Positions 1-31,238 of a DNA stretch of 64,000 bases are shown here, one piece after another. The stretch's first letter is position 1, and the number at the start of each line of letters is the position of its first letter. The DNA lies in the NCBI GenBank assembly GCA_038063415.1, contig JBBTVD010000006.1, positions 9,948-73,947 of the forward strand. The letters run 5' to 3'. The notes beneath the pieces are model-generated. The model did no database searches and was not told the origin of the DNA. It saw only the letters and a list, made by a program, of their open reading frames with translations. The DNA is from Patescibacteria group bacterium. Lineage in GTDB: Bacteria; Patescibacteriota; Microgenomatia; Levybacterales; UBA12049. The position numbers and the translations under genes are program-made.

Positions 1-1456
1 AATAAGGGAAATTATTATTAATGATTGTTGAGTAAACTGATTCTAAGTTAGTGAAAACATTTTTCAAGTTATATGTAGCATCTACTTTTGAGAACATGTC
101 CCAAACCCATCCGCCTCCTTTTCCTAGTCTTGAATAATCTCTAGCTTTATAAGGTCTTTTTATTTTTTTATTATCTTGTTTTAATAAATTCAAAAATTCC
201 ACAAACAATCCAAAAGGCATCTTATCATTACCTACCAAAACATTAGTAATTTTCTGATTGTTTTTTAGTTTGATATCTACTTTATCCCTAATCTCATTAC
301 GTTCATCATTTATGATTTCATTAATCCACGTGGGATCTAAATATCGTATCCTTCCGAAATTTATTCTTTGTTTAAAATTATTTCTGTCTTTTTCTACAAG
401 AAAATTAAAAGCTTCTTTTAACCAAAGAGGAAGATAGATATTAAAAGCTCTTTCAATTTCTACAATACTGTATTCATCTCTTTTCTCTAATCCCATTTGA
501 ATATTGAATTCATCTATAAAAGCAAAAATAAATTCTCGTGCTAAAAAATCACTTCCTTTATGACTGAGTAGTTTTTTTTCAACAATTTTTAAAACTTTTG
601 GTTGAATAATTTCTTTTGCGTATTCTGTAGGTCTTTTTTCAATTGGGTTTTCGATTGAATGTCCCGTAAAGCCTAACCCTTCTCTTGTAATTTGATTATG
701 GAGATTATCATCAACTTCTTTTATTTGCACATCATTTGTATCATACCCAATCGGATATAGGGTATATATTACGCTTGTATCTATATACTCGTAATAAGCT
801 AAACCAATCTTCCATGTTTTGGGGTAATATATATTTTTTACAATTTTAAATTCATTATCAATTAAACTATTTAATCGATCTAAGAAAAAATGTGCATTTA
901 TAAAAGATTTTTGAACTTTTCCTAGAGCGGGATTAGAATTTTTCAGAATTGTATCATAAGCTTTTTTTAATTCATCAAAATTTTGATATTTACGGATATG
1001 ATTTCGAGTAAGTATTTCCCATGCATCAATATAATCTATTGTATTTTTATCTAAATATTGTTGCGGATTAAAATTTATGGTTTTAGTATATTTGTTCTTA
1101 CCCAAACTAATTTTTTTTATTGTTTGAGCATCAAAATAGAGCCAATAGATTTTTTCATTTTTGTTATCGACACCCAATAATAAGCATGGGTTTATCTCAC
1201 AGTAAGTAAAGAAAGAAATAGGACAAGCAAATTTTAGTTTATGGTTTATAGGAAGAGTTTTTGCCTGTACAAATAGAGTGCCTACAAAAATATTTTGAAT
1301 GTCTTGCACATCGACATATCCATCGATATTCGGCCACTTATCGATAGAAAAAAGTCTTGGCATAACTCTTTTATGTGATGCCAAAACTTTATTAATCAAA
1401 CCAATAGATTCTGTGTCTGTAAAACTTGTAGAATCATGTGAAGGTACATTTCCCAT
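1..1456 (-). CDS. hypothetical protein; its start is in the window, its C-terminus runs off the left edge
   Basis: Open reading frame on the minus strand begins at an ATG (plus 1454-1456, translation MGNVPSHDST...) and continues past position 1. No recognisable motif. Sits 9 bp downstream of the DUF2779 gene on the same strand, so likely the same operon. Not in the ORF track because no stop lies in the window. Confidence 0.45.
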   Translation of the reverse strand, partial: MGNVPSHDSTSFTDTESIGLINKVLASHKRVMPRLFSIDKWPNIDGYVDVQDIQNIFVGTLFVQAKTLPINHKLKFACPISFFTYCEINPCLLLGVDNKNEKIYWLYFDAQTIKKISLGKNKYTKTINFNPQQYLDKNTIDYIDAWEILTRNHIRKYQNFDELKKAYDTILKNSNPALGKVQKSFINAHFFLDRLNSLIDNEFKIVKNIYYPKTWKIGLAYYEYIDTSVIYTLYPIGYDTNDVQIKEVDDNLHNQITREGLGFTGHSIENPIEKRPTEYAKEIIQPKVLKIVEKKLLSHKGSDFLAREFIFAFIDEFNIQMGLEKRDEYSIVEIERAFNIYLPLWLKEAFNFLVEKDRNNFKQRINFGRIRYLDPTWINEIINDERNEIRDKVDIKLKNNQKITNVLVGNDKMPFGLFVEFLNLLKQDNKKIKRPYKARDYSRLGKGGGWVWDMFSKVDATYNLKNVFTNLESVYSTIINNNFPY

Positions 1457-1465
1457 ATGGATTTT

Positions 1466-2971
1466 CTATGCTAAATTACTTGTCGATATTTCAACTTGCA
1501 GGACTTTAAAAAGCTGTACCATAGCGAGCGTATCAAGCTTACAATACTCGATTAGATCAGTCATAATCTGATTTTTTGTTTCTGCATTTTTTCCATCAAG
1601 TACCGTCTCCATCCAGAGCCGTTGCGCTGATGCTCCTTCCTGGATATTGAGTTCCTTATATGATAATTCCGATACCAGAACAGGCAATACTTTCTTGATT
1701 GATGCACTTCCATAAAAATCTTTATCAACAAACCAACCCTCAGCAAACGGAGTCATGAGATCAATTACTCTGTTATTTAGACTTTGCATAAAGTCCGCAT
1801 ACTCGGGAAACATTACACCAAGTTCTTTATTTCGACTCTTTTCAAATTTTTCGTACCATACAAGAACCGTTCCAGTCTCACCTATATCTTCTTTGAGTCT
1901 TTCGAGAAGAGGAAGGCCTGGATGAGTGTTTTCTGTATGCAGATACTCTTTGTGTTGTATAAGAGCATCAGGGCTTTCAATGATATGAAGTGAATATTGA
2001 AATGGAACTTGTTGATAGGGTCTAATGCCGTCAAAGGATGGAATGACGCTACTGAGTGTTTCGTAATCCAGGAAATAGAGAGGGTACTGGATATTCTTCA
2101 TAAATTCACTGATTTTTGTTTTCTCAATAAGACGCTGATTGGTCTTTGTCGCGTGCACTTGCCGTTTTTGTTTTTCTGAGAGGGCGATATGGTCTGGGAT
2201 GTCTTTAATGTGTGTAATCCCGAGATCTTCAAGCTCACCAACGAGCTGTGGTTTGAGTGTTGCAAGGTGATAAATGCTATGTGGATCAAGATCAGTATAG
2301 AGAGATTTATAAATGGCAAGCCATTCATCAATTGGTCCAAATCGAACAAAGCGAGGTGACATGCCTGGTGGAGTCTCTGATTGGATTGTTCTAATGGCTT
2401 GTTGGATATTTAGTTTTGTTTCATCAATGAGAAGCCTGACCGCCTCTGTGACATCAGTTGTCTTTGTTAGTGCTTTTGTATCAATTGGTCCTTTTCGTAC
2501 ATATTGATTATTAACATGGATGACACCGACATTTCTAATTGTTAACCCTGCGAGCTCAAGCACAACGACTTGAAACGCGAGATCATACTCATGATCTATC
2601 TTAACTGAGGTACTGGATTTTATTTCGTATAAATCAAACACATTGCCTTCAACTCTATCTAATACATCAAAAATACAAGTTATATTATCCGTCCCAACTC
2701 TTCCTTGCAAAATTGTTTTTGTACCATTTTCTATTGCATCAGTCGTTCGTTTTGGCAAAGTTATATATTCTTGATAACCATTAAATCCGAGAAGTGTACT
2801 ATTCGGAAACAATTTTTCGGCATATGTTTCAACCAAATGCCCATTATCAAACATAGCTTGCAATGCTTGATCTACTTCAGGGAGTTTGGCTTTATCATGC
2901 TTCTTAAGCCATAACCATGCAGGTTGTTTAAGAAACATCATATATTCTGATTTAGAAATAATCATTGTCAT
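1466..2971 (-). CDS. DUF2779-family protein with an N-terminal PD-(D/E)xK nuclease-like domain and a C-terminal DEDD-type 3'-5' exonuclease-like domain
   Basis: 501 aa. N-terminal DLYEIK (D..ExK) motif. C-terminal exonuclease-like motifs FLDYET (DxE) and YCKLDTLAM (Yx3D). Size and architecture are typical of DUF2779 proteins. Confidence 0.6.
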   Translation of the reverse strand: MTMIISKSEYMMFLKQPAWLWLKKHDKAKLPEVDQALQAMFDNGHLVETYAEKLFPNSTLLGFNGYQEYITLPKRTTDAIENGTKTILQGRVGTDNITCIFDVLDRVEGNVFDLYEIKSSTSVKIDHEYDLAFQVVVLELAGLTIRNVGVIHVNNQYVRKGPIDTKALTKTTDVTEAVRLLIDETKLNIQQAIRTIQSETPPGMSPRFVRFGPIDEWLAIYKSLYTDLDPHSIYHLATLKPQLVGELEDLGITHIKDIPDHIALSEKQKRQVHATKTNQRLIEKTKISEFMKNIQYPLYFLDYETLSSVIPSFDGIRPYQQVPFQYSLHIIESPDALIQHKEYLHTENTHPGLPLLERLKEDIGETGTVLVWYEKFEKSRNKELGVMFPEYADFMQSLNNRVIDLMTPFAEGWFVDKDFYGSASIKKVLPVLVSELSYKELNIQEGASAQRLWMETVLDGKNAETKNQIMTDLIEYCKLDTLAMVQLFKVLQVEISTSNLA

Positions 2972-3020
2972 TTTATTTTAACCTATATTATTGATGATAC
3001 TTCTATGACATAACTAAAGC

Positions 3021-4907
3021 TTATCGCCAATTATCTGTTAGAATAATCGTCTTATTTTTTGGTTCGTGTTTAAGTGGCTCAATTTTGCCTATATCAATAA
3101 CTACAGGAACATTTGCTAAAAGGCCTGCCAAAATACAAGTTCCTGTTGGTAAAATTGGCAAATACTCAAATGAGACTTTATCTAAATAAGAGATTGTTTG
3201 TTTTACGGCATTAATATCTTCATTGTTAATAAGTCGATGGAGAAAATAGTTATGTAATTGTGAGATAATCGTCGGTGAAATATCCGATGGTCTCTGGCTT
3301 GCAAGAGTAAGGAAGACTCCAAACTTTCGACCCTCTTTAATAATTTCTTCAAAGGTTTCCAGACGATAATCCTTCCATTGCTCACTTTCTCGTTCAGAGT
3401 TCTCTGAGAGAATATTGTGGGCTTCATCAATTATGATATTTAAATATTTTCGATCATCATTTTCTATCTTTTTGTCGTTGTACAATTTCTTGCACAAGAG
3501 TAAAGGAAGAATTTTCCTCATATGCATATTAACATCCTTTAACGACACAATAGTAATATTTTTCCTTCCATCAATTTCTTCAATCGTCCTAATTTCGATA
3601 ACTTTTTTTAGATCATCAATTCTTTTATCTAATCGTTTAATAAGAGGCGAAAGATGTTCCTTGTTAGAAAATCCTCGAATTATGTCATTATAGTATTGAA
3701 TTACAATTTGCAATCTTACTTCGTCTATAGGTGTAACTTGAGTAATATCAATCTGTAGTAGAGTGATTTTACTATCAATAAAATCTGTTCTAAAAGTAGC
3801 TTGATCACTAAAGGTTTTTATTCCGTTTTCTTGATAATAATACTTATTAACTCCGCTATGGAACTTAAGGTGTTCATTATAATCTTCCAAGAGTGTAGTA
3901 ATAGTTGCATTGCCACCTAGGCAGTCTATAAGTTCTTTTAGTAAATTGAAAATTATTGTTTTTTCAACGTTTCTATCACTCTCAGTCGTAGCTTCATATA
4001 TCATTTGTCCAATTAGATTTTTTAACTCAGCTTCTTCTCGTATTTTGGGAGCAAGATAGCTGTTATCTACTGAACGACGTAAAAAGGGCATTTGTGTTTT
4101 TTCGGTTGCTTCTAAAAATACCACCCAAAAATCTGAATCATTAAGGCTCTCTCTTGTAATCGGAAACTTATCTCCTCCAGTTGTGCGTGTGGAAAGCTGA
4201 TAAGTATTCTTATATTTTTTGTCTATAATGACATGATCTCGTCTGTTACCATTTACATATTCGCCATTAAAATCAATTAGAAAAAATTTAGCGTTTCTTT
4301 TGAATTTTCTTTTATCTTTATATTTCAAAAAAAGCTCACGATAAATTTTTGCGAGTGTATATGATTTACCACTACCTGTGTTACCAAAAATGCCGATATG
4401 GCTTGCCATAAGTCCATTAACTCCTACTCGTATCTCTTGACCTTTCTCAAATGATAATGTACCTATGGTTAAAGGATCGTCATTATCTCTTATAAAGTCG
4501 TGCACTTGTTCAAATTCTTTTTTATGAAGTAGAAAACATTCATTGTCGAGCAATGGAAGCTCCTTAATGCCACGTTCAAAATGCTTTCCTTTAAAAAAGC
4601 CCAGTAGGCTGAGACTTAAAACTCTATTAACTTTTTCTTTCTCATTACCATACCCTTGTTTTTTAATAAATTGCTTATCTTCATTTACAAACTCACCTTC
4701 AACCTTACCTATGATTATGGTAAATCCTTTTATGATTTTAATATAGCCGCCAACGGAAATATTTTTTAGAAGTTCGCCTTTATATACAAGATGTGAGGTG
4801 TTCTTTGTTTTATCCACCTTTACTTCTACTGTTCTACCTTTAACTGAGATGACTTTCCCAATTTTGAAAATAGAATCCTCAGATAATTGATCGTTTTTTA
4901 TAGGCAT
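3021..4907 (-). CDS. herA: HerA/FtsK-like ATPase (DUF87), the HerA partner of a SIR2-HerA defence pair
   Basis: 628 aa. Walker A GIFGNTGSGKSY, Walker B IIIDEAHN, sensor TLASQRPSDIS. N-terminal beta-barrel-like region. Starts 5 bp after the upstream SIR2 gene on the same strand. Confidence 0.8.
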   Translation of the reverse strand: MPIKNDQLSEDSIFKIGKVISVKGRTVEVKVDKTKNTSHLVYKGELLKNISVGGYIKIIKGFTIIIGKVEGEFVNEDKQFIKKQGYGNEKEKVNRVLSLSLLGFFKGKHFERGIKELPLLDNECFLLHKKEFEQVHDFIRDNDDPLTIGTLSFEKGQEIRVGVNGLMASHIGIFGNTGSGKSYTLAKIYRELFLKYKDKRKFKRNAKFFLIDFNGEYVNGNRRDHVIIDKKYKNTYQLSTRTTGGDKFPITRESLNDSDFWVVFLEATEKTQMPFLRRSVDNSYLAPKIREEAELKNLIGQMIYEATTESDRNVEKTIIFNLLKELIDCLGGNATITTLLEDYNEHLKFHSGVNKYYYQENGIKTFSDQATFRTDFIDSKITLLQIDITQVTPIDEVRLQIVIQYYNDIIRGFSNKEHLSPLIKRLDKRIDDLKKVIEIRTIEEIDGRKNITIVSLKDVNMHMRKILPLLLCKKLYNDKKIENDDRKYLNIIIDEAHNILSENSERESEQWKDYRLETFEEIIKEGRKFGVFLTLASQRPSDISPTIISQLHNYFLHRLINNEDINAVKQTISYLDKVSFEYLPILPTGTCILAGLLANVPVVIDIGKIEPLKHEPKNKTIILTDNWR

Positions 4908-4912
4908 ATATT

Positions 4913-6094
4913 TTACTCTTCTGCTTCAGGATTGTTGATTTTTTCTTCTGTTACAATATTCTCTACGTTTTCTTCTTCCAGTAAACATCCAAATATATTT
5001 TTATTGATTGTTGGAAAGTCATATTCGAATTTGTCAATTTTTGATCCGTCACCTGTTACTTCTTGTTCCGGGGCAATAATTTCAATATTATTATTTTTAA
5101 TATTATTCTTTCCAAATTTTTCTTCTATACCTATTTTTGCCTTTGAACTATGAGCAATAACATAAATCATAAGAGTAGGATTAGAATTAGCAGCTCTTAA
5201 CGTTATCTCTTTAAGATGCTCGTCTGCAAAGGAAAATCCCATTACAAAAAGAACAGTATTATCTTTTTCAAGTTCATTTGAGTATAAACGCAAGAGTTCA
5301 TAATATGTCTGGTTCATGAGTGTATGCTTGAATTTCTCCTTTGTAGGATTAACAACAATCAGCAGTTTTTCATAGGCTTCCATAAATGCGTCAGTAGAAG
5401 CATCAGTAGTTTTTCCGGTCGCAGCTGTTATTAGTTTTGCTATTGTCGCATCTTCAGGGATATCTATAATATGTGCCGGAGAAATTGTTTTGCTTGAAAC
5501 TTCTTTAACGTGTTTTAACTCACAAGAAAAGATAATATCATTTGGTGTAATTTCCCAAGATAATGATCCATGTAATTTTGAAAGGTTAAATACTGGAAGC
5601 TCTGCTGTATTATCATAATGTAAACTTTTCTTGAAATGCGATTTTTTAAAATTACTGAGGCTAAATTTGGGTTTAAATCGTCCATTAAAACCGTCGTTGT
5701 ATTCAAGATTAAGATCTTCCAAAGCTTTTTCTAAAAAAATATCAATATTTGTAGTAAAAAGGTTTACTTCTTTGCTGAGAAGGGTAACTTTGCGTTTAAG
5801 CAGAATAGAATTTAATATGTTGAGAAAATTACGATAGGTTTCTAGGACCTCTTGTGCAGTAACATCAGATTCAAGTATTTTTGGATTTTTAGAAATTACG
5901 TCATCAAAATATTTTTTATAAAGAGATGCTCGTATAAGTTTTTTTTTGCTAGCGCTCATATTTTGTTTTTCTTCAAGCTCCGTAAGTAATTTCTCAATAT
6001 TTCCGAGCGTTTTGAGATACGGCAAAGATAGACCTGATCCTATGAGAAAGTTTATATTACAATCTTGAATTATATTTTTAATTTTATCGTTCAT
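4913..6094 (-). CDS. SIR2-family (NAD-binding GxGxS) protein, the SIR2 partner of the SIR2-HerA pair
   Basis: 393 aa. N-terminal FLIGSGLS motif (SIR2 GAGxS-type dinucleotide-binding loop). Tightly coupled to the HerA-like gene downstream. Confidence 0.75.
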   Translation of the reverse strand: MNDKIKNIIQDCNINFLIGSGLSLPYLKTLGNIEKLLTELEEKQNMSASKKKLIRASLYKKYFDDVISKNPKILESDVTAQEVLETYRNFLNILNSILLKRKVTLLSKEVNLFTTNIDIFLEKALEDLNLEYNDGFNGRFKPKFSLSNFKKSHFKKSLHYDNTAELPVFNLSKLHGSLSWEITPNDIIFSCELKHVKEVSSKTISPAHIIDIPEDATIAKLITAATGKTTDASTDAFMEAYEKLLIVVNPTKEKFKHTLMNQTYYELLRLYSNELEKDNTVLFVMGFSFADEHLKEITLRAANSNPTLMIYVIAHSSKAKIGIEEKFGKNNIKNNNIEIIAPEQEVTGDGSKIDKFEYDFPTINKNIFGCLLEEENVENIVTEEKINNPEAEE

Positions 6095-6105
6095 AGAGTT
6101 TATAA

Positions 6106-6288
6106 CTATGTGCTCTTTATAAATTTTTCGATATCCTTTTTATGATATCTTCTTACTCTTTTAATCCCAATTTTCATCGCAATAAGAATGCCTTTTTTAT
6201 CCCAAGCTCTGAGTGTATTCGGATGTACTTTTAATATTTTTGCCGTTTCTTTGAGCGTTAATAATTCTTCCATATATAATGCGGTCAT
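6106..6288 (-). CDS. HTH_17 (MerR/excisionase-family) small DNA-binding protein
   Basis: 60 aa, LLTLKETAKILKVHPNTLRAWDKKGIL helix-turn-helix. A paralog lies at 24320-24508. Confidence 0.7.
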   Translation of the reverse strand: MTALYMEELLTLKETAKILKVHPNTLRAWDKKGILIAMKIGIKRVRRYHKKDIEKFIKST

Positions 6289-6401: not shown

Positions 6402-6605
6402 TTAAAAAAGTTCTGGTACCTTTACTTTCAAAGCTCGAGCCAGTTTATCCATCAACTTAATAGATGGTGACTTTCTGCCTTGTTCAATATGCCCCATATG
6501 TGTCCTGCTTATGCGTAACTTTTCGGCTAGTTCTTCTTGCGTATATCCTATTGCCTTTCTTAACTTTTGAATCTTTCTGCCTTGTTTTTCTGGTGTAGTA
6601 GCCAT
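6402..6605 (-). CDS. XRE-family HTH transcriptional regulator
   Basis: 67 aa, IGYTQEELAEKLRISRTHMGHIEQGRKSPS is a classic XRE HTH. A paralog lies at 24005-24217. Confidence 0.75.
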   Translation of the reverse strand: MATTPEKQGRKIQKLRKAIGYTQEELAEKLRISRTHMGHIEQGRKSPSIKLMDKLARALKVKVPELF

Positions 6606-7175: not shown

Positions 7176-7190
7176 GCTCATCTTTCTAAG

Positions 7191-7753: not shown

Positions 7754-9055
7754 ATGGAAAACAAAGTAAATAATCCAATTGTTGAATATTGTTTATATGC
7801 AAGAAAATCATCAGAAGATGACGAGCGTCAGGCAATGTCCATTGATTCCCAAATTAAAGAGATGAATGAGATGGCAGTAAAAGAAGGATTGTTTATTAAA
7901 GAAATCCGCAGAGAAAGTCACTCAGCAAAAATGTCAGGACAACGCCCGGTATTTATGAAAATCATAGAGGATCTTCGTTCAGGGCTCTTCTCAGGCATCC
8001 TCACATGGGCACCAGATCGCCTGAGTCGCAACGCAGGAGATTTAGGGATGCTTGTAGATCTTATGGATCAAGAGAGGCTTGTTCATATAAAAACTTTTAC
8101 TCAAGCATTTTCAAATACTCCTTCTGAAAAGTTTTTGCTCATGATTCTTTGCTCACAAGCTAAGCTAGAAAACGACCAGAAAGGCATAAATGTAAAACGA
8201 GGAATTCGTGCAAAATGCCAAATGGGCTGGAGACCAGGACCTCCTCCGATTGGATACTTTAATAGAGCATTTAATGGGATAAAAGATATTGTGATTGATC
8301 CAGAAAGAGCATCTTTTGTTACAGAAATGTTTGAACGGGTCGCAAAAAATGGAGATAGTGGCAGAACGATAAAGCGATGGCTTGATAGAGAAGGGATGAC
8401 AACAAGAGCAGGTAAAGGAGTAACGCTTAGCCAAATTTATATGATGCTAAAAAATCCTTTTTACTATGGAAAGTTTGAGTACCCTATTGGGGGTGGAAAT
8501 TGGTATGAAGGTAAACACACACCACTAGTTAGTAAAGAAACTTTTGATAAAGTGCAAAAACAGTTGATTACTTATCCAAAGTCAGCATGGGGTGGGAAAA
8601 TTATTGCCTTTAAAGGATTGTTTAAATGTGGAAACTGTGGCAGAAATATCGTAGGAGAAGAAAAATGGAGAAAACGGAAATGGGCAGAGCCAGTAAAACA
8701 TGTTTATTATCACTGCGCTCCTATCCTCAATCGTTGTACTGAGCCTTATATTAGTGAGGAAAAGTTGATAAAGCAGATTCTAAGATATATTAATTTTATG
8801 AACATTGCTCATCCAAAACACTTAAAATTAACAGAAACACTTAAATCAAGCATTTCTGCATATATGGCAATACGAGAAGAAGTTTTATATGAACAAGAAA
8901 TTAATCCTAATGATTCACCAATAAATGTAGTCGAATTTGCTGCGTATGTTTTCAGGAGTGGGTCAATAAGTGAAAAACGAGATTTAGTACTTGCGTTAGA
9001 TAGACAGCTTTATATTAAAAATCAATTTATTTCATCTTTAAATGAAAATACATAG
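7754..9055 (+). CDS. large serine recombinase (resolvase-domain integrase)
   Basis: 433 aa. N-terminal resolvase catalytic region YARKSSEDDERQAMSIDSQ with the catalytic Ser context. Later recombinase domain and zinc-ribbon cysteines (CGNCGR...HCAP). Strong paralog at 35728-37062. Confidence 0.85.
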   Translation: MENKVNNPIVEYCLYARKSSEDDERQAMSIDSQIKEMNEMAVKEGLFIKEIRRESHSAKMSGQRPVFMKIIEDLRSGLFSGILTWAPDRLSRNAGDLGMLVDLMDQERLVHIKTFTQAFSNTPSEKFLLMILCSQAKLENDQKGINVKRGIRAKCQMGWRPGPPPIGYFNRAFNGIKDIVIDPERASFVTEMFERVAKNGDSGRTIKRWLDREGMTTRAGKGVTLSQIYMMLKNPFYYGKFEYPIGGGNWYEGKHTPLVSKETFDKVQKQLITYPKSAWGGKIIAFKGLFKCGNCGRNIVGEEKWRKRKWAEPVKHVYYHCAPILNRCTEPYISEEKLIKQILRYINFMNIAHPKHLKLTETLKSSISAYMAIREEVLYEQEINPNDSPINVVEFAAYVFRSGSISEKRDLVLALDRQLYIKNQFISSLNENT

Positions 9056-9056
9056 A

Positions 9057-12000
9057 CTAATCATTATATTGCCTCGTACCTCTGCAATAGGGGAACTTAC
9101 TACATCCATAGAATTTTCCGTATTTGCCATTTCTCAATACCATTTTTGAATTACAGTTAGGACAGTTTTCATGGTCAGATAAATATATAGGTGTCTGAGA
9201 AGAAACACTTTTCTTTTTACATAAATTACAAAATTTACCAATTCCGGTTATAAGAGATTTATCTTCAAACTGATAAGCATCTCTAAATTCTCCACATTTG
9301 GGACATTCTTTCATTTTTCCATTCTGCAAATTTTCAATTGTAGAATGAATATCGTCTAGTAATGGGTTTACTCTATGACGGTTTTTTACTAACTCTTCGA
9401 TTCTTTGATTTAATGTCTCAATTGGAGATTTTCCAATATTAAATCGATTAATTCTAAGGAATTTATATCCATAGCTTTCTAATACTTTTTCTCGATAAAC
9501 ATCTTGATCATTGTAATAATCTTGATAATTGAATTCATTTACGTCTTCATCCTCTTTAAAGTGTTCTTTAAATCCATCGTATTCAATTATTATTTTGTGT
9601 TCTCGCTTTCGTTCATCTATATAAACAAGCAAGAAATCTGTTTTATACGCAGGATGATTATATGATTTATTTAATTGTTTTAAATATTGACCGAGTTCAA
9701 ATTGTGGGAAAAAGTCTATATTGTCTTTATTATTTTTCCAAAACTGAGTTTGATAAAACCAATTCATTACTTCTTTCTCCATAGGGGAGTTCTTATCAGT
9801 CTCACTTACATCTCGTTCTTTTTTGGCTTCTTCCAAAGCAAACTTATAATGCATTAAAGCATTCCCAATAGATCCGCTAAATTCCTCTGGCTTTTTACTT
9901 AATACAAAATGCATGGTTTCTTGAGCACGACTAAAGCCAACATTTAAACGCTGCGCCTTAATCTTTCCGTCTTCTTCAATGTTAATACTATTTAAATCAC
10001 TGATGAAGATATATCCTAATCGATCATCTTGAGGAGTTGCTACCATTGAGTAAAAGATTGTATCTCGCTCTTCTCCTTGGCAGGTATCAAACGTCATGAT
10101 TTTCAATTTCAAATCCTTAAAATAGTAATCTCTTTCAGGTAATTTATTAATTCGATCACTTAATAATTTTTGTTGATCTGTATGTGGAGTTATTATTCCA
10201 ACACTTATTTTCTGATCATCTTTATGCATTTTTTCTAGCTCACTTATTATGTAGTCAATCTCTAACGAATTAGTTGTAGGAATCAAGTCTGTTTTGCCAT
10301 CAGATTCAATAATTTTAAATTTAAGCACATCGCTAATCTTTTTACCTCTTATCTTCATTACCTGAAGACTATCTTGATAGAAATATTTATTTGAATAAGA
10401 AATAATTTCTTTGTATCCTCTAAAATGCTTGATGAGTTGAATATTATAATTACTAATAAATTCAAAAAAGTCCAGTATGGAGGTTTTTATATTAAACTTT
10501 TCAAGCTTAACTAATTTTGCATTTTCTTTGGATATGTGTTTTGTGAACACTGATTTAAGATTATTCAGATACTCGGTATTTGTGTCAGATCGAGCTTGAG
10601 CTGCTTTTACATTACTAAACTGTTTCTTATCACCCAAAATTAGTACCTTTTTAGCTCTCAACAATGCAGGGAATGCTTGAGCAATACTTACCTGAGATGC
10701 TTCATCAATAATTACTAGATCAAAAATATCTGGCTCAAGAGGTATGTATTCAGCATAATCTCTTATTCCAGCTAAAATACAAGGAAATGCTTCTTTTAAT
10801 TTCGAAAATTCATCTTTGGGAAATTTTTGCTTCTTTTTAATTATTTCTCTCAATGTTTTTGCAGTTGCTCTACTATTTTCGTAAAAATCAATTAAACGCC
10901 CATCCATAATATAAGTCATCTGAGTTATCATTAGGTCTTCAATTATCTTTTTTTGATTGGAGTAATCACTAAAAGATATGCCCTTAAATTCTTTGGAAAT
11001 CTTTTGTAGTAAGCTTAAGTAGCGGAGTAACTTTTCAAAATCTAAATCTGTCATTCCTGTTAATTTATTATTATGAAAAGTCTCAAGAGAATTATTTATA
11101 CCAATATTCTGTGCGGACAAAGGATATATCTCTTTGAATAAATTAACACTTGAAAATAGAGCTTCGAGTGTTTCAATTTTTTCTAAATAATTTTCAAATT
11201 GATCGCTTATAATAAAAGTGCTGACAAACTTTATATAATCGAATTTATCTCCTTTTACGCTTAGCAACTGCTTTTGCAATTCGTCTGCGGATTTATAGAT
11301 ACGTACACACTCTTCAAGCAAGCTAATTTTGCTATGGGCATCTTTGATGGTTGATTGAGGAAATGAGATTTGAAAATCTGCATCTAATTTTTTAATTTTA
11401 TCTTTCTTAAATGTGTAGCCTAAAATCCAATTTTTTTCATTTTCATATTTAGTTACATATTCTTCTAATACAACGACATCTTTATCTGAAATTGGACCTA
11501 GTTGCTTTAAATTATTAATATTATCTTTATATATCTCATGCAACTTTAAAAAAATAGTTTTTACTTCTGCAAGGAATATTTTATGCGTCTGTAACTCTTC
11601 TATATTTTTAAGTTTGGAAAAGGAAAAACCGCTCAGTTTAATATATAATTGCTCTTCATCTGTTAAAGAAGAATCTTCAAGTTTGCCTTTAATTTCTAAG
11701 AATATACTTCTCAATTCATCGAGATCAGAAATGCCGTTGTCATTAGACACAATCTCTTCTTTGTCTACAATTGCCTTACTAGTTATAAAAAACTCTTCAA
11801 GATTAAAAAATTCATATATCTCATCGATATTTATATGACTATATGAATAAATTTCTGCTTGCAAATCCTCATTTAGAGAATTTAATCTTTTATCTATATC
11901 ACTTTCGACAGACGCATGATTGCTTTTTACAACTCTGTAATTAGCTTTAATATTCTCAATTGCAGAAGTAGCTAAAATTTGATTATAAGTACTCCCTGTT

Positions 12001-13625
12001 TTACCTAATCTTAAAAGAGGGTTTTGAAAATTCTTATCCAGTCTAACTTTATTTAAGGTCTGAGTAATTTTATCTTCTACAACATCTAATGCTTCTTTTT
12101 TATCTGAAAGGACCAAGATGGATTTATTTTCTAAAATGGCATTAAAAGCAATTGCCGTTATTGTATGACTCTTCCCAGTACCAGGAGGACCCTCAACGGT
12201 AATATAACTACAATCATCTTTTTTTAATGCAGAAAGTAGCTGTAATTGCTCACTATTTAGAGGAATTGGACTTCTCGCTATTAATTTCTCGCTCACCTCT
12301 AAGTTATCCCACTCTTCCTCTACAGCTGGATTAAATGGAGAAGGATCTTTGTATAGGAAGTCATTAATAAGTGAATTAAATTTCTCACCTAATATACTTT
12401 CTTCTTCTGCGCTTAATAACTGAAGAATATCTTCATAGTCATTAACTAACGCCTCATCAGATTTATCAAATAATGAAAAATATATGCTATTCGAAATTCT
12501 TACTGTAAAACTTTTTGCTAATTGTAATTTTGAGTCCTTGGTATCAAGCTTTTCATCCAGGCTAAAGAAGTTAACAAGCTCATCAAATATATCTTGGATA
12601 TTTGTGGCAAAAAGGCTTGGATCATCATTAATATAAATTATTCTTTCTGTAATCAACTTTAAATTGCCTCTTTTTTCCTGCTCTCTATTAAATTCTTGAG
12701 TAATAAACTCCAAGGCTTTTTTATTTATATAAACTTGAGGTTCAAAGTTTATATTTATTGAATCGCTTATCCTCTCCACAGAAAACGGAATGTAAAAAAT
12801 TGGATATTTTATATTGCTATATGTAATATCTCCAAAATACAAATAAAACTCTTGCTTATCGAGTATATTTTGATTCTTCATTAACTCATATACTTCTGAA
12901 AATAAATCGGTGACTTTAAAGGCTTCAAAAAAAGTGGTAATTATTGCTTTTACATCTTTAAGATCAAGAAGAGGCTTCAATTCTTGTTCAACGTTAACCT
13001 TTTCCTTTGCAATTAATAATTGTAGGATTTCAGATATTTTACTTTCAACCTGTTTAGTAAGTATATCCGTTAACTCTACCTCCATCAGATAGATACCATT
13101 CTCGTCAGTTAAATGCAGATTATCTAATGGTTTTTCTATACTTGAGAGAAATGGGAGGACAAAAGTTGTCTTTATCGCTTTAGATACGTTTTCTAAAGTA
13201 TTTGCGAGAGCTTGATCATATTCTTGCTTATTTATAATTGATTCTTCCTGAACTTCTTTGGATATCTTTGTAATAATCTGATTTATATCTTTACTACTAA
13301 TTTTCCCTATCTGAATCTTGATAAGATTAAGTAAGTTTTCTGGAATATTTACTTTATACACTCCTTTAGAAACAGTTTTCAACTGATCTTCACCGAATGA
13401 ATGACGAATAGTATTCCAAATAACATCAACGAATGTAGGATATTTTCCTAGATTCACTCCGACTAAAAGGTTGTCATTATTATGAAGTTTAATTGTTCTC
13501 CGAGGATTTTTATGCTTATGGAAATCTGACTCAAGAAAATCCATAAAGTACTTAGCAACTTCAATGATAAATTCTTTTCCACTACCTTGAAATGAAGCCA
13601 TTTTTTGTTTTACAGAGTCTTCCAT
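9057..13625 (-). CDS. giant SF1 helicase-nuclease: DUF4011-like N-terminus, AAA_11/AAA_12 Upf1/DNA2-like helicase, DUF559/Vsr-like endonuclease domain and a topoisomerase-type zinc ribbon (Hhe-like)
   Basis: 1522 aa. Helicase motifs GPPGTGKSHT, VIIDEASQV, TCQGEERD, RLNVGFSRAQ. C-terminal region EYDGFKEH resembles DUF559/PD-(D/E)xK. Terminal CPKCG...CPNCNSKMVLRNGKYGKFYGCSKFPYC resembles the Topo I C4 zinc ribbon. Confidence 0.75.
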   Translation of the reverse strand: MEDSVKQKMASFQGSGKEFIIEVAKYFMDFLESDFHKHKNPRRTIKLHNNDNLLVGVNLGKYPTFVDVIWNTIRHSFGEDQLKTVSKGVYKVNIPENLLNLIKIQIGKISSKDINQIITKISKEVQEESIINKQEYDQALANTLENVSKAIKTTFVLPFLSSIEKPLDNLHLTDENGIYLMEVELTDILTKQVESKISEILQLLIAKEKVNVEQELKPLLDLKDVKAIITTFFEAFKVTDLFSEVYELMKNQNILDKQEFYLYFGDITYSNIKYPIFYIPFSVERISDSININFEPQVYINKKALEFITQEFNREQEKRGNLKLITERIIYINDDPSLFATNIQDIFDELVNFFSLDEKLDTKDSKLQLAKSFTVRISNSIYFSLFDKSDEALVNDYEDILQLLSAEEESILGEKFNSLINDFLYKDPSPFNPAVEEEWDNLEVSEKLIARSPIPLNSEQLQLLSALKKDDCSYITVEGPPGTGKSHTITAIAFNAILENKSILVLSDKKEALDVVEDKITQTLNKVRLDKNFQNPLLRLGKTGSTYNQILATSAIENIKANYRVVKSNHASVESDIDKRLNSLNEDLQAEIYSYSHINIDEIYEFFNLEEFFITSKAIVDKEEIVSNDNGISDLDELRSIFLEIKGKLEDSSLTDEEQLYIKLSGFSFSKLKNIEELQTHKIFLAEVKTIFLKLHEIYKDNINNLKQLGPISDKDVVVLEEYVTKYENEKNWILGYTFKKDKIKKLDADFQISFPQSTIKDAHSKISLLEECVRIYKSADELQKQLLSVKGDKFDYIKFVSTFIISDQFENYLEKIETLEALFSSVNLFKEIYPLSAQNIGINNSLETFHNNKLTGMTDLDFEKLLRYLSLLQKISKEFKGISFSDYSNQKKIIEDLMITQMTYIMDGRLIDFYENSRATAKTLREIIKKKQKFPKDEFSKLKEAFPCILAGIRDYAEYIPLEPDIFDLVIIDEASQVSIAQAFPALLRAKKVLILGDKKQFSNVKAAQARSDTNTEYLNNLKSVFTKHISKENAKLVKLEKFNIKTSILDFFEFISNYNIQLIKHFRGYKEIISYSNKYFYQDSLQVMKIRGKKISDVLKFKIIESDGKTDLIPTTNSLEIDYIISELEKMHKDDQKISVGIITPHTDQQKLLSDRINKLPERDYYFKDLKLKIMTFDTCQGEERDTIFYSMVATPQDDRLGYIFISDLNSINIEEDGKIKAQRLNVGFSRAQETMHFVLSKKPEEFSGSIGNALMHYKFALEEAKKERDVSETDKNSPMEKEVMNWFYQTQFWKNNKDNIDFFPQFELGQYLKQLNKSYNHPAYKTDFLLVYIDERKREHKIIIEYDGFKEHFKEDEDVNEFNYQDYYNDQDVYREKVLESYGYKFLRINRFNIGKSPIETLNQRIEELVKNRHRVNPLLDDIHSTIENLQNGKMKECPKCGEFRDAYQFEDKSLITGIGKFCNLCKKKSVSSQTPIYLSDHENCPNCNSKMVLRNGKYGKFYGCSKFPYCRGTRQYND

Positions 13626-13788: not shown

Positions 13789-14775
13789 ATGCATTTTAAT
13801 AAAACAATCTTACTTTTGGGTGCCGGGTTTTCAAAGAATTTTGGTGGACTCCTAGCAAGAGAAATGTGGGCAAAAATATTTAATCATCCTTTATTGGATA
13901 CTGCTGGAGACGTAAAGTTAGCTTTAAGGCATGATTTTAATTTTGAAACTGTCTATTCTGCAATGTATAACTTTACTGAGAATGGGAAAAAAGATCAATT
14001 TAAAGTTTTGGAACAAATTTTACAAGATGTTTATAAAAATATGAACGATATATTACTCAACCCGGCTGCTGATACTGGAGTAAATATTAGTTTGCTACAA
14101 AATAATTTTATAAACAAATTCACGGATGATGGTAGTGGAGGGTTTGGTGCATGTTTTTCATTGAATCAAGATTTATTTTTTGAGAAATTCTTTAATAGAA
14201 ATCCACTAGGTCCAGCATCAATAATTTATGGAACTAACCCTAATACTGTTCATGCAGGCGAACTTAATATAGATAAAAATCTTCCAACTCCAGAACAAAT
14301 GGATGCTTATAAAGCACAATTTCAGGAACGAGGGTTTGGATTTATTAAATTGCATGGTTCATTAAACTGGATTACCGCGGATGGTAATTCCGCCAAAGTC
14401 ATTGGAATAAATAAACCTGAAATCATCTCATCCATCCCTTTACTCAAATGGTATAGAGAATTATTTGCACAAGCTGTTCAACAAGAAAATATTAAATTAG
14501 TTGTTTATGGATACAGCTTTAATGATAAGTATATCAACGATATTATTGTAGATGCCATTCATGGTAAGCCTGATAGAAAAGCAAGTAATGCGAAAATTTA
14601 TATTGTTTCACCAGAGAATCCTAAAGATTTGAAGGAGAGACTTGAAAAGACAGATCATGGCGAAATATGGAATGCTGTAGATGGTTATTTCCCATATCTT
14701 ATGCGTGATTTATTCCCAGCTAATGGACAAACTACTTCTCAGTATAATGAACTTATTACGCGTATTGGATTTTAA
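13789..14775 (+). CDS. stand-alone SIR2-like domain protein
   Basis: 328 aa. N-terminal LLLGAGFSKNFGG (SIR2-type GAGxS loop). Divergent from the helicase-nuclease gene. Confidence 0.65.
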   Translation: MHFNKTILLLGAGFSKNFGGLLAREMWAKIFNHPLLDTAGDVKLALRHDFNFETVYSAMYNFTENGKKDQFKVLEQILQDVYKNMNDILLNPAADTGVNISLLQNNFINKFTDDGSGGFGACFSLNQDLFFEKFFNRNPLGPASIIYGTNPNTVHAGELNIDKNLPTPEQMDAYKAQFQERGFGFIKLHGSLNWITADGNSAKVIGINKPEIISSIPLLKWYRELFAQAVQQENIKLVVYGYSFNDKYINDIIVDAIHGKPDRKASNAKIYIVSPENPKDLKERLEKTDHGEIWNAVDGYFPYLMRDLFPANGQTTSQYNELITRIGF

Positions 14776-15118: not shown

Positions 15119-15763
15119 ATGGCAAAAAAGACAAAACTAATGAGCATGCGAAAGCTGATCTATTTAGTACTATCTATAGTAATTCTTGGTCTTGGTGCTC
15201 TAGTTTGGTATAAAAACTGGCAAAGCAAGTTTGAAGCTCCTAGACAAAATACTCAATCAATTGGGTTTACTTTTAAGAAAGATACCTCCTTAACGGCAGT
15301 AGTTGGTGATCTTCACTATTACGGATTCATTAAAGATGAAGGTGCGTTTATATACGCATTAGCGCACACAAAAGATAATACTCCAGGCAAAGAGAGTGCT
15401 CTTACTATTGGGAGTAACACCATCAACCGAGAAGCTAGATATAAAATCTCTCAAAGTATGACTGCTTGGCAAATAGCGGACGTACTACTTAACCAAGGTG
15501 AACTTAGTACATGTGACCACGGCTGTCCTGATAGTAACTTTGATCCTGAACTTCTTCCGGGTGGCGATTTGGCACCCACTCTGAAAGAAAAGTACTCTGG
15601 GGTTAAAACCTACGAAGATTGCACCAAGGCGATTGGCCACGATGGCGGGCAACTTTCTTCAGAACAATATGCTCAGAGAACTGGAATTAGGAGATGTGTC
15701 GCTCCTGATGGGCGAGAATTTACTCAAGGGAAAGAAGGTTGGTCAGATGTCCCTACTCCTTAG
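15119..15763 (+). CDS. membrane-anchored hypothetical protein
   Basis: 214 aa with an N-terminal TM helix (LIYLVLSIVILGLGALVWY). Composition is more G+C-rich than neighbouring island genes. No recognisable catalytic motif. Confidence 0.5.
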   Translation: MAKKTKLMSMRKLIYLVLSIVILGLGALVWYKNWQSKFEAPRQNTQSIGFTFKKDTSLTAVVGDLHYYGFIKDEGAFIYALAHTKDNTPGKESALTIGSNTINREARYKISQSMTAWQIADVLLNQGELSTCDHGCPDSNFDPELLPGGDLAPTLKEKYSGVKTYEDCTKAIGHDGGQLSSEQYAQRTGIRRCVAPDGREFTQGKEGWSDVPTP

Positions 15764-16415
15764 GTGGTCGACCCCTTTTTACAGTAACTGTTCCTGGTAT
15801 ATTAGTTTGAGCTAGTTTGTGGCTAATCGCTCCTATATTTACGTCGTACGCCTCCAATCTAGGACTGTAGGACACAACACGAGCAATAGTATCAGGATGA
15901 TTGGAAACTTCTTGGACTGAAAATGCTTTTAAGTCAGTTTTCAAAGCCAATAGGTTATCTGTTACGGCTTGGTGATCAATTTCTAAATCCTTGCCAATAT
16001 GAATAAGAATCCAGTATCCTTCTGGTAACTGGAACTTACCCCCACGCTCACTTAATTTTTCTACCAATGATTTTTTAGGTAAACCAAGTTTGTTTCTACC
16101 ATAAAATGTCATTTCAATAGGAGCTATTTCTTGTGTTTCATCAGAGACTGGTCGCATTAGAAATGCATCAGGCGAATCATCAATATTATTCATTTGTACG
16201 AAGCATGAATGCTCTTGCATTGTATAGAAAGCTAAGCCAAAGATCGCCAAGTCGCGTAGTTCGCGAATCCTTTTATGCTTGCCGTTGTACTCAATCTCAT
16301 CATGACCAATGCCTGTGGCTTGTTTTTGATACTCAAAATAAGCCATATCAGGTCTTAGCCACACCTTATCGTGAGGAATCGTAAATTTTCTCGATGGTTT
16401 CTGCGCGTCTTTCAT
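15753..16415 (-). CDS. hypothetical protein, gene 4 of a four-gene operon
   Basis: 220 aa, no recognisable domain. Overlaps or abuts upstream genes on the same strand. Confidence 0.55.
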   Translation of the reverse strand: MKDAQKPSRKFTIPHDKVWLRPDMAYFEYQKQATGIGHDEIEYNGKHKRIRELRDLAIFGLAFYTMQEHSCFVQMNNIDDSPDAFLMRPVSDETQEIAPIEMTFYGRNKLGLPKKSLVEKLSERGGKFQLPEGYWILIHIGKDLEIDHQAVTDNLLALKTDLKAFSVQEVSNHPDTIARVVSYSPRLEAYDVNIGAISHKLAQTNIPGTVTVKRGRPPKE

Positions 16416-16423
16416 ATATTAAA

Positions 16424-17440
16424 TTAATCTTTGGACTTCTTGATTCCGACCCTCCCGAGTATAACAAAATATAAGTAGAGAACGAGGGTAGTATTTTGGA
16501 AATTACACTCCGCAGGAGCTATTTCACCATGAGCGATTTTATGTCTGAGCTTATATCCCATGGGCTCAAAGAGAACGAACTTAATTTGCCTACAGAAGTC
16601 TTCTCCAAATATTTTTATAAAATCTTCTGAATCAAAATCTCTTTCAGAAAGTACTTTCGTACGTGTGGCTGTATCGACTGTGGTATCTAAGGCGACAGTA
16701 CTAATGCCCAGTTGTTTGGCTATGCTTAATAAAAATGATTCAAACTGTGGAACTAAAATATGAAGAGCAGAAATATAATCCTCCTCATAATATTTTTTAA
16801 TACCAACAAGTACTATCTTAAGTTGATTGGGAGTAAACAATTCTGATTTAGAAAAATAATCAGATATTTCTTCAATGTTCATCATCTCTCCATAAGGGTT
16901 GCCATTTATTAGCATATACATTAATCGATTTAGACACAAAGTAACTATCTGTTTCAAACTTAAATCATACATTTGCATAAACCATGAGTATTCTGCTAAC
17001 GAGCCCCCACGCAAGTTGTGACCTTCGTCTGAAATAGTAGTTAATGTTGCAAACTGATAAGTGATTGGCATTGTTCTCTTAGCCAAAATATCCACATCTT
17101 TAACTTTGGGCATAAAATCAGGGTGCTGGCCAATAATCTTCAGTACTCGGTTTTTATCATCGATCTTGAGAATACCTACAATAAAGTTTTTAAGAGAATT
17201 ACTTTGTTCTTCGGTCAGATCATGTACAAACTCATGTTCTTGAAAATCCTTGCCAGACTCAATAGATTTTTTATTCATTTCCACAACCTTCGCCTTACAA
17301 AGTTTTATGGATACAGAGTCTTCAAGTTTTTTTGCCATTTCAAGCGCTTCCTTATATATAATCGCGGCACTAAAGAAACTTTCTGAATTTTCAGCTGTCT
17401 TTGCCTCCTCAATTTTTTTGTTAAGATCCGTTTTGTTCAT
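16424..17440 (-). CDS. hypothetical protein with a C-terminal HEPN-like (Abi_2-type R-x-x-I-A-H) motif
   Basis: 338 aa. C-terminal LRHKIAHGE fits the Rx4-6H HEPN signature and the Abi_2 (AbiD/AbiF) RxxxAH pattern. 4-bp overlap with the upstream gene. Confidence 0.55.
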   Translation of the reverse strand: MNKTDLNKKIEEAKTAENSESFFSAAIIYKEALEMAKKLEDSVSIKLCKAKVVEMNKKSIESGKDFQEHEFVHDLTEEQSNSLKNFIVGILKIDDKNRVLKIIGQHPDFMPKVKDVDILAKRTMPITYQFATLTTISDEGHNLRGGSLAEYSWFMQMYDLSLKQIVTLCLNRLMYMLINGNPYGEMMNIEEISDYFSKSELFTPNQLKIVLVGIKKYYEEDYISALHILVPQFESFLLSIAKQLGISTVALDTTVDTATRTKVLSERDFDSEDFIKIFGEDFCRQIKFVLFEPMGYKLRHKIAHGEIAPAECNFQNTTLVLYLYFVILGRVGIKKSKD

Positions 17441-18264
17441 TGTGATTTCCCAAAGTTAATCTGTTGCATCCACTCTTTTTGATTATGCGCTGACATAAAT
17501 GATGGATCTTGAGAAACCATAGCAAAAAGTATGGACATAACTGGTTTACTCTCTTTATCGTAAGGGAAAGTTAGTAAACAAATAAATCCCATTGATTCAG
17601 AAGAAATAGAAGAGCGAAGATCATCTGTAGCCTTCTTTAAATCGATACTCAAGTTTGTTTCACTTGAATATGGCATGACTAGAACACAATTAATGCTTGC
17701 GGGTTTTTGAAAGTACTTTTTATATATTTTAAGTCCTTCAGTAAGTTGATAATTAGGATTGCCTTTAACAGAAATCTTTGGGTTGATCATCAAAGATTTT
17801 AATTCTAACGGAATAGATATAGTCTCTTTAGCGGTGTTTTTTGGTAATCCAAGTAAAAAACCGTCCCAGCTACCTTTTCTGAAATGTGCTTTTACACCTA
17901 TTGTCTGATCAGGGAGTTGCCATGATGGAATTAACGTATAGTCAGTGCTATGTTTGCCTAATGTGTATGTCGTCTGGAGCACTCCTACCAAAATAGCTAG
18001 CTCGATTGCTCTCAAATCATTATCAAAGTCGAACTCGTTGAGAAGTTGGATATCCTTAGCTCTTTTCATGAGTACATTTTGCAAATGCTCAGTGTTAGAT
18101 AGCTGTTTGGAATTGCTGAGCAACTCTTGCTCGAAATACTTTTTTATTTGTCTGTAGAGATATTTGACATCATATGCGGCCTGAAAATTTATTGTTCCGT
18201 TGACCGTTTTGGCTAAAATATTTATGACCTTTGGTTTATCATTCTTCAAAACTGGACTTTCCAT
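17437..18264 (-). CDS. hypothetical protein, gene 2 of the operon
   Basis: 275 aa, no recognisable motif. Translationally coupled to the downstream gene. Confidence 0.55.
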   Translation of the reverse strand: MESPVLKNDKPKVINILAKTVNGTINFQAAYDVKYLYRQIKKYFEQELLSNSKQLSNTEHLQNVLMKRAKDIQLLNEFDFDNDLRAIELAILVGVLQTTYTLGKHSTDYTLIPSWQLPDQTIGVKAHFRKGSWDGFLLGLPKNTAKETISIPLELKSLMINPKISVKGNPNYQLTEGLKIYKKYFQKPASINCVLVMPYSSETNLSIDLKKATDDLRSSISSESMGFICLLTFPYDKESKPVMSILFAMVSQDPSFMSAHNQKEWMQQINFGKSQ

Positions 18265-27198: not shown

Positions 27199-27204
27199 AT
27201 TAAT

Positions 27205-31000: not shown

Positions 31001-31238
31001 CCAAAGTGCAATGGAGGTTCTTGGTGATGCTCAACTTAGGGATTTATCAAGAGTACTTGTGCAGAGAGTTAAATCAAACACTTCAATTGATTGGACTATC
31101 AAAGAAAGTGTACAAGCCAAGTTAAGAGTGATTGTTCGTCGCACTTTACGACAATTTGGTTATCCACCAGATGCCCAATTACTTGCGACCGAAAATGTGT
31201 TGAAACAGGCTGAGCTGTTGGCCGATGATTGGAAATAA
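28047..31238 (+). CDS. hsdR: Type I restriction enzyme R subunit
   Basis: Start taken at the Met of [12 protein letters not shown]. Walker [13 protein letters not shown] box [10 protein letters not shown], helicase C-terminal motifs. Confidence 0.9.

Follow-up and report, generated by a model that had tools for sequence, protein, structure and literature searches.

A probable two-gene SIR2-HerA anti-phage cassette in a Patescibacteria defence island, followed by a predicted dual nuclease and a candidate DREN-type nuclease

SIR2-HerA systems defend bacteria against phages, and the members described so far include: (i) Nezha and the E. coli types I-III; (ii) SaSir2-HerA of S. aureus (8YHO/8YHX); and (iii) Paenibacillus PsSIR2-HerA (8WLD). 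In these systems a SIR2 ring assembles with HerA hexamers, the nicotinamide adenine dinucleotide (NAD+) hydrolase (NADase) activity depends on a trigger, and HerA acts as an ATPase and nickase (PMC11514289, PMC11472057, PMC13434337). A pair of genes of this kind lies in the stretch of DNA analysed here, 64,000 nucleotides of contig JBBTVD010000006.1 from a Patescibacteria group bacterium (henceforth, the window). The two genes are likewise adjacent and co-oriented, SIR2 being the first, and the pair shares with the known systems: (i) the Asn/His dyad of SIR2; (ii) the N-terminal barrel region and the Walker A and B motifs of HerA; and (iii) its existence as a mobile cassette in defence islands. 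Unlike the solved SIR2-HerA systems, it is hosted by a Patescibacteria (candidate phyla radiation, CPR) genome.

Two further genes follow the pair on the same strand (Table 1): one encodes a DUF2779 protein and the other is called here gene 4. According to the original prediction, the four genes might be co-transcribed as an extended variant of the SIR2-HerA system. The account favoured here, which is considered quite probable, is that the pair forms a two-gene SIR2-HerA anti-phage cassette within a Patescibacteria defence island and that DUF2779 and gene 4 are separate neighbours, though a read-through transcript might cover them. Patescibacteria, with their tiny genomes, are generally considered immune-poor apart from restriction-modification (R-M). 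In such bacteria, a full SIR2-HerA cassette with its predicted NAD+ depletion is a system of a familiar type in an uncommon host.

The SIR2 and HerA proteins

The open reading frames (ORFs), sizes and spacings given in the original prediction are all present in the sequence, and the SIR2-HerA identity that it assigned to the pair is borne out by strong PADLOC matches and by the motifs of both proteins. The PADLOC run, proposed at that time as a check, matched HerA to PDLC04097 (4e-175; profile positions 5-611 of 618) and SIR2 to PDLC04080 (2.9e-63), while the Pfam matches were DUF87 (1.3e-16) and SIR2_2 (3.8e-11), respectively. HerA carries the Walker A motif GNTGSGKS at aa 175-182 and the Walker B motif IIIDEAH at aa 491-497. 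The motifs of SIR2 are GSGLS (aa 19-23), TTNID with N116, and KLHGS with H175; residues G19, G21, N116, D118 and H175 are invariant in 68 out of 68 homologues adjoining HerA. The catalytic Asn/His dyad of SaSir2 is N226/H287, and since N116 and H175 correspond to it, they are read as catalytic (PMC11514289).

The pair is distant from every solved SIR2-HerA system. Among the structures in the Protein Data Bank (PDB), HerA is closest to SaHerA (8yho_A, 3.5e-33), followed by Nezha HerA (8j4u_M, 8e-21), and SIR2 matches the SIR2-HerA chains 8j4u_A (EcSir2, 1.4e-12) and 8yhx_G (3.5e-12); the alignment to EcSir2 spans the TTN(I/Y)D and LHGS motifs. Neither protein reaches the cut-offs of the NCBIfam equivalog models: SIR2 scores 83 vs 500 bits for SIR2_antiphage, and HerA 124 and 117 vs 800 and 850 bits for HerA_antiphage. 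Because the scores are so far below these cut-offs, the pair is regarded as a distinct clade within the SIR2-HerA kind. The domain assignments of SIR2, HerA and DUF2779, made from their sequences, are unambiguous and far beyond chance, and SIR2 is predicted to be the NADase effector, and HerA the ATPase partner, of a SIR2-HerA system.

HerA also gives weak matches to archaeal repair HerA, CedB/CedD and FtsK models, which could indicate a HerA-based module for DNA repair or translocation (similar to HerA-NurA or FtsK) with SIR2 as a deacetylase or regulator. Such a module is extremely unlikely: by far the best matches are to defence-specific PADLOC models (4e-175) and to solved antiphage SIR2-HerA complexes, no gene for NurA, Mre11 or Rad50 lies in the vicinity, and the cassette is mobile and lies amid R-M and other defence genes.

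As an anti-phage cassette, the pair would be expected to work by analogy with the S. aureus, E. coli (Nezha) and Paenibacillus systems: (i) HerA hexamers would dock on the SIR2 ring; (ii) phage infection would switch the complex on; (iii) SIR2 would hydrolyse NAD+ via Asn116/His175, with accompanying ATPase and DNA-nicking activity of HerA; and (iv) the loss of NAD+ would stop the growth of the infected cell (abortive infection). The cassette was probably delivered together with the neighbouring serine recombinase, and it would have landed directly upstream of a resident DUF2779 gene; gene 4 would be another independent cargo, a candidate single-gene defence protein.

The extent of the conserved unit

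Relatives of HerA that are 66-85% identical occur in many metagenomes, including a metagenome-assembled genome (MAG) labelled Acidiferrobacterales. The comparison covered 83 HerA loci (80 metagenome and 3 viral contigs), of which the 54 with at least 1.5 kb of sequence after HerA were informative for the downstream gene; a total of 748 flanking ORFs were compared around the HerA loci, and 214 around 12 DUF2779 loci. Wherever the contig extends far enough, the gene immediately before HerA is almost always SIR2. When the window was aligned by blastn to its six closest SIR2-HerA relatives (the independent loci L129, L133, L020, L131, L021 and L056), the DNA homology was confined to the pair, as single blocks of 68-74% nucleotide identity that run from the SIR2 ATG to the HerA stop.

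Among the informative loci, what follows HerA differs in size, strand and family. The next gene encodes a 141-aa unknown protein in L129 (HerA 85% identical), a 199-aa unknown protein in L133 (81%), and a 250-aa solo Cas4-like nuclease in L020 (83%) and L021 (80%), while in L131 (82%) the next ORF has 79 aa and lies on the opposite strand. DUF2779 directly follows HerA in only one of the 54 loci (L064), and among the 748 flanking ORFs DUF2779 was found once and gene 4 not at all. The viral contigs hold only distant HerA relatives, none of them with DUF2779. As read from these alignments, SIR2-HerA is a horizontally mobile cassette of exactly two genes. The solo Cas4-like gene was also considered as a conserved third gene of the closest clade, and rejected owing to its absence from L129, L131 and L133. 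The window itself also encodes, elsewhere, a Cas4-like protein (Table 1); in the close relatives L020 and L021, it is homologues of this protein, 57% identical, that occupy the position right after HerA.

Several observations weigh against a cassette of only two genes: (i) the four genes of the window are co-oriented and separated by gaps of just 5, 49 and 9 bp, and the 49-bp gap has neither a canonical terminator nor a convincing promoter; (ii) L064 is an independent second occurrence of the order SIR2-HerA-DUF2779, with a 4-bp overlap between DUF2779 and the HerA stop; (iii) L020 and L021 carry another Cas4-family nuclease right after HerA and, altogether, nucleases of this family, of two kinds, follow HerA in about 4 of 55 loci, which is above pure chance; and (iv) a search for att-like direct or inverted repeats in positions 1-9300 yielded only short AT-rich chance matches, and neither att sites nor element ends emerged.

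The first two observations would fit a single co-acting operon of SIR2, HerA, DUF2779 and gene 4, in which NAD+ depletion is combined with an unwinding by HerA that feeds the DUF2779 and DREN-type nucleases. DUF4297-HerA is a pairing of HerA with a nuclease, and this counts for such an operon. So does HerA-NurA, an instance of HerA ATPases working with nucleases (cited in PMC11472057). In both partnerships HerA is followed by the nuclease gene, a place that is occupied by DUF2779 in the window and by the solo Cas4-like gene in L020 and L021. However, their nuclease is obligate and conserved and replaces SIR2, whereas in the kind found in the window the conserved partner is SIR2.

Against the four-gene operon stands the lack of conserved linkage, which the original prediction had itself named among the findings that would refute it: besides the single DUF2779 in 54 loci and the confinement of DNA homology to the pair, gene 4 is never near SIR2, HerA or DUF2779 elsewhere, and the closest DUF2779 orthologues are all without SIR2-HerA. 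The GC content at third codon positions (GC3) differs too, from 0.19 in gene 4, 0.22 in SIR2 and 0.25 in HerA to 0.30 in DUF2779; the core genes have values of 0.26-0.40, which DUF2779 resembles, those of SIR2, HerA and gene 4 being lower. In terms of synteny, the four-gene variant put forward in the original prediction is thus largely refuted, and it must be judged very unlikely. The recurrence of nucleases after HerA is explained equally well by the clustering of genes in defence islands, and it falls far short of what a conserved component would give.

The L064 locus (GC 34%) carries AbiEi-AbiEii, SIR2-HerA and DUF2779 in one co-oriented array (795-7146), whose proteins are 38% (SIR2), 50% (HerA) and 35% (DUF2779) identical to those of the window. 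L122, a longer contig of the same lineage, ends inside HerA, so the gene after HerA is not confirmable there. Given L064, a facultative link between SIR2-HerA and DUF2779 is possible.

Regarding transcription, the scan for promoters and terminators gave counts no better than those of shuffled sequences. An imperfect AU-rich hairpin extends across the HerA stop and the 49-bp gap (Table 1); because it is without a U-tract, it is not a canonical terminator. The regions upstream of five DUF2779 orthologues were aligned for a shared promoter, and neither conservation before the ATG nor a common motif was found. Since the four genes are co-oriented, with short gaps and no canonical terminator in the 49-bp gap, their co-transcription by read-through is plausible. 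In several other genomes DUF2779 abuts or overlaps unrelated upstream genes of the same strand; tight spacing with unrelated upstream genes is therefore usual for DUF2779, and the 49-bp spacing is no evidence of a shared function. In compact genomes, tight spacing is a poor guide to system membership.

On the other side of the pair there are two small HTH genes of the same strand that were absent from the original prediction (Table 1). The one next to SIR2 encodes an HTH_17/MerR/excisionase-like protein. In alignments with other SIR2-HerA loci, the similarity of the DNA goes no further than the SIR2 ATG, which places this gene outside the conserved cassette. Its protein had a tblastn match in 1 of the 83 HerA loci, not adjacent to HerA there, and on this comparison the gene is not conserved with SIR2-HerA elsewhere. 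The protein may serve as a regulator of the locus, or else as the excisionase-type factor of the element on which the cassette is carried.

The DUF2779 gene and gene 4

The DUF2779 protein had been read as PD-(D/E)xK plus DEDD nuclease, and this reading stands. It matches Pfam PF11074 (4.8e-41), with a weak Cas4 match in the N-terminus, and its catalytic residues D100, E114, K116, D300, E302, D402, Y474 and D478 are invariant in 35 sequences, down to 30% identity. Its AlphaFold2 (AF2) model has a predicted local distance difference test (pLDDT) score of 88, and Foldseek matches it with probability 1.0 to Cas4 (4r5q/8d3l) and to DnaQ domains (8h2f/8h18). As modelled, the protein is a predicted dual nuclease, composed of an N-terminal Cas4-like PD-(D/E)xK domain and a C-terminal DnaQ/DEDDy exonuclease, in agreement with the Cas4-like and DnaQ-like architecture described before (PMC3985635, PMC13621843). 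The DUF2779 proteins of the MMSYN1_0389/UU173 family of Mollicutes share with it both the arrangement of two domains (Cas4-like plus DEDDy) and the catalytic residues (PMC13621843). The Mollicute protein differs in being larger and in its quasi-essentiality, MMSYN1_0389 being the Mycoplasma homologue that is quasi-essential in the minimal cell (PMC13621843), and the match of the window protein to the NCBIfam UU173 model is weak (75 vs 225 bits).

Homologues of DUF2779 number more than 7200, and across Patescibacteria they are 57-89% identical. Twelve independent orthologue loci (52-89% identity) were examined as the synteny check suggested at the outset: in none of the 12, and in none of the 214 flanking ORFs, was a homologue of SIR2, HerA or gene 4 found within 8-10 kb. 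Orthologues that are 81-89% identical have upstream of them an MmeI-type R-M system, AAA_13, or a Type ISP R-M system with a PLD nuclease, and downstream nSTAND or type IV secretion system (T4SS) genes; in Saccharibacteria, the upstream gene belongs to a Type I or MmeI R-M system or is a reverse transcriptase. Locus by locus, DUF2779 adjoins: (i) MmeI-type R-M in L008, L009, L012 and L017/L019; (ii) AAA_13 in L009; (iii) Type ISP R-M, PIF1 and a PLD nuclease in L010, with an nSTAND NTPase downstream; (iv) Type I R-M in L013, L015 and L016; (v) a reverse transcriptase in L018; and (vi) PheST, GyrB and tRNA synthetases in the Nomurabacteria loci L119-L121. In L009-L012, T4SS-like genes lie beyond DUF2779. 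DUF2779 likewise follows differing defence-type proteins on plasmids from Campylobacterota, Betaproteobacteria, Cyanobacteria and Negativicutes, namely NACHT/STAND, AAA_13 with WYL and DUF6602, AAA+, and GHKL with PLD and a DEAD helicase. A recurrent pair of HerA and DUF2779 on plasmids was considered and rejected, as the upstream 'ATP-binding proteins' are NACHT/STAND, AAA+, GHKL and AAA_13 proteins, dissimilar to HerA and to each other.

Defence hotspots bordered by conserved genes include the Pseudomonas core defence hotspots and the E. coli immigration control region. DUF2779 is likewise bordered by differing defence systems, and in the window there is a recombinase and a tRNA at the edge of the island. 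In three Saccharibacteria loci (L015, L017 and L019), a ParB-methylase 69-72% identical to that of the window (20196..21536) is found about 8 kb from DUF2779, and variable cargo lies between both genes in the same relative arrangement as in the window. In Saccharibacteria, the conserved ParB-methylase/terminase module forms the far side of this arrangement. Judging from the compared loci and from a GC3 like that of the core genes, DUF2779 is a conserved resident gene bordered by variable defence cargo in a hotspot-like manner and, with respect to SIR2-HerA, a neighbour of the system and not a part of it.

The same loci can also be read as those of a facultative general helper, a nuclease that processes the DNA ends produced by the upstream DNA-targeting system, in which case the position of DUF2779 after SIR2-HerA here and in L064 would be meaningful. 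Such a role is suggested by the fact that DUF2779 immediately follows, and in many cases overlaps, MmeI-type, Type I and Type ISP R-M, reverse transcriptase, AAA_13, NACHT/STAND, GHKL and AAA+ genes in CPR genomes and in plasmids of four other phyla, as well as by the 5'-3' plus 3'-5' exonuclease pair that the folds of the Cas4-like and DnaQ-like domains imply; besides, Sir2-HerA complexes nick or degrade DNA (PMC13434337, PMC11472057). Nevertheless, the genes around the Nomurabacteria orthologue are housekeeping ones, none of them a defence gene, and MMSYN1_0389 is quasi-essential (PMC13621843), and the two together indicate a housekeeping role in DNA metabolism. Furthermore, unrelated genes are commonly co-located in defence islands, the sampled loci are phylogenetically non-independent, and plasmids are defence-rich anyway. 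The helper role is, on balance, unlikely.

Several observations extend the picture of the DUF2779 loci. A second arrangement that resembles a hotspot, this one outside the CPR, is found in the Aliarcobacter plasmids L123 and L124: a few genes separate DUF2779 from the SbcC/SbcD-like genes upstream of it, and this cargo differs, comprising NACHT/STAND and DUF4145 in the first case and WYL, AAA_13 and DUF6602 in the second. The closest DUF2779 orthologues (L008-L012) adjoin a T4SS-like cluster (TrbC, T4SS pilin, PrgI, TraC-like and VirB4-like) to which a Replic_Relax relaxase and a coupling protein are added in L008; a backbone similar to that of an integrative and conjugative element is thereby suggested for this lineage. 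L012 and L013 are labelled 'uncultured Gammaproteobacteria', yet they carry CPR-type genes, and the labels may reflect mis-binning.

Gene 4 is cut by the left edge of the window. On the source contig (L001) its full length is 608 aa, 100% identical to a hypothetical protein of a Patescibacteria groundwater MAG, and it is the last gene of the same-strand run, the genes beyond being convergent. The window protein has no significant match in Pfam, NCBIfam, PADLOC or PHROGs; it has 168 homologues, many of them with PF14280 (DUF4365). Its AF2 model (pLDDT 84.7) gave as the top 11 Foldseek matches chains of the SPARDA DREN protein (9qcc/9jt2), with probability 1.0 over about 150 aligned columns. The DREN head, found by structure prediction only, spans aa ~30-180; all homologues share D45 and Q64, K66 is almost invariant among them (at least 90%), and the remaining ~430 aa are without any structural or sequence match.

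The DREN-APAZ effector of SPARDA has the same DREN/DUF4365 PD-(D/E)xK fold, with D...QxK conserved, as the N-terminal ~150 aa of gene 4 (PMC10810196). By contrast, gene 4 lacks the APAZ domain, the fold match is restricted to its N-terminal domain, and the gene is solitary; no Argonaute-like gene was found in its flank on the source contig or in the homologue loci. Homologues of gene 4 are solitary in four other contexts, often with flanking genes on the opposite strand: beside Type III R-M (L115 and L117), near a serine recombinase (L005), and on a viral contig (L114). In these four contexts, as in the flanks of the HerA and DUF2779 loci, they were never found near SIR2, HerA or DUF2779. As far as the model goes, gene 4 probably has a DREN/DUF4365-type PD-(D/E)xK nuclease head and is a candidate independent, single-gene defence protein.

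Apart from the cassette, the residual interest of the locus lies in two matters: (i) whether DUF2779 marks a hotspot or acts as a helper; and (ii) gene 4 as a new protein family, whose members have a DREN-type nuclease head and behave like stand-alone defence genes. In the literature searched, no earlier description was found of a hotspot role of DUF2779 or of such an arrangement in CPR genomes. A bolder proposal would hold that DUF2779 is an unrecognised resident of defence islands across phyla, either as a marker of cargo hotspots in Patescibacteria or as a generic end-processing helper for upstream DNA-targeting systems, SIR2-HerA included, and, separately, that gene 4 is a new single-gene immune protein with a DREN effector; it is regarded as doubtful.

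The island and its mobility genes

The features of the window are collected in Table 1. To the right of 37.5 kb there are core genes (aminoacyl-tRNA synthetases, RecJ, the CCA-adding enzyme and purine synthesis), and an island, at least 37 kb long, likely ends on the right at the second serine recombinase and the tRNA-Gln (35728-37317); leftwards it continues past the window edge. Besides the cassette and its neighbours, the island contains the second serine recombinase, the Cas4-like nuclease, the AAA_23/LmuB-like ATPase, the Type I R-M system, the ParB-methylase/TerS/TerL module, a DUF4209/PDC-S39-like gene, the second SIR2-domain protein and the SF1 helicase. Genomic islands of Patescibacteria are enriched in defence genes, mainly R-M (PMC12455944).

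Table 1. Position, strand and size of the features of the window
Feature	Position	Strand	Size	Remarks
Gene 4	1..1456	-	485 aa visible	ATG at 1456; cut by left window edge
DUF2779 gene	1466..2971	-	501 aa	
Imperfect AU-rich hairpin	2972..3040	-		-16.1 kcal/mol; z = -2.4
HerA gene	3021..4907	-	628 aa	
SIR2 gene	4913..6094	-	393 aa	First of the four co-oriented genes
HTH_17/MerR/excisionase-like protein	6106..6288	-	60 aa	11 bp upstream of SIR2; Pfam HTH_17 2.1e-12; NCBIfam excisionase domain 4.5e-5
XRE-family HTH protein	6402..6605	-	67 aa	Upstream of HTH_17 gene; Pfam HTH_3 2.2e-15
Large serine recombinase	7754..9055	+		1.6 kb from SIR2; Pfam Resolvase, Recombinase, Zn_ribbon_recom
SF1 helicase	9057..13625	-	1522 aa	C-terminal topoisomerase-type zinc ribbon
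Second SIR2-domain protein	13789..14775	+	328 aa	Divergent from SF1 helicase
Neighbours of DUF4209 gene	15119..18264			No family assigned
DUF4209 protein	16424..17440	-		
ParB-domain methylase/small terminase/large terminase	20196..23479	+		
Type I R-M system	24518..31238	+		HsdM, HsdS, 281-aa ORF, HsdR
AAA_23/LmuB-like ATPase	31248..34010	+	920 aa	
Cas4-like PD-(D/E)xK protein	34013..34768	+	251 aa	2 bp after AAA_23/LmuB-like ATPase
Second large serine recombinase	within 35728..37317			Adjoins tRNA-Gln
tRNA-Gln	37244..37317			Only Rfam match
Housekeeping genes	from 37544			

The large serine recombinase nearest to SIR2 is likely the mobility gene of a small element that brought SIR2-HerA. Two close relatives of the pair, L131 and L133, are also located beside serine recombinases, about 35% identical to this one, and such proximity, in both loci as in the window, suggests that SIR2-HerA is carried on small integrative elements. 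At the protein level, the cassette is 80-85% identical to copies in other genomes, one of which (82%) is labelled Acidiferrobacterales. A cassette shared at this level, and embedded in an island of at least 37 kb with multiple systems, indicates that such bacteria draw on a common pool of mobile defence genes.

Other genes of the island deserve a brief mention. The SF1 helicase matches PADLOC PDC-S37 (4e-43) and, in part, MkoA/MkoC, ProA and Hhe (Mokosh-like); the second SIR2-domain protein differs from the SIR2 of the cassette, and both together could be another defence pair. The DUF4209 protein matches, each time in part, the PADLOC candidate system PDC-S39 and two PHROGs of unknown function. 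The Type I R-M system is complete; HsdR-like proteins of ~1000-1075 aa directly adjoin SIR2-HerA in at least eight other loci, the copy in L047 being 56% identical to the HsdR of the window. No other recognisable phage structural genes were found near the ParB-methylase/terminase module, and a weaker second copy of the methylase-terminase pair is located just left of the window (L001 13314-14674).

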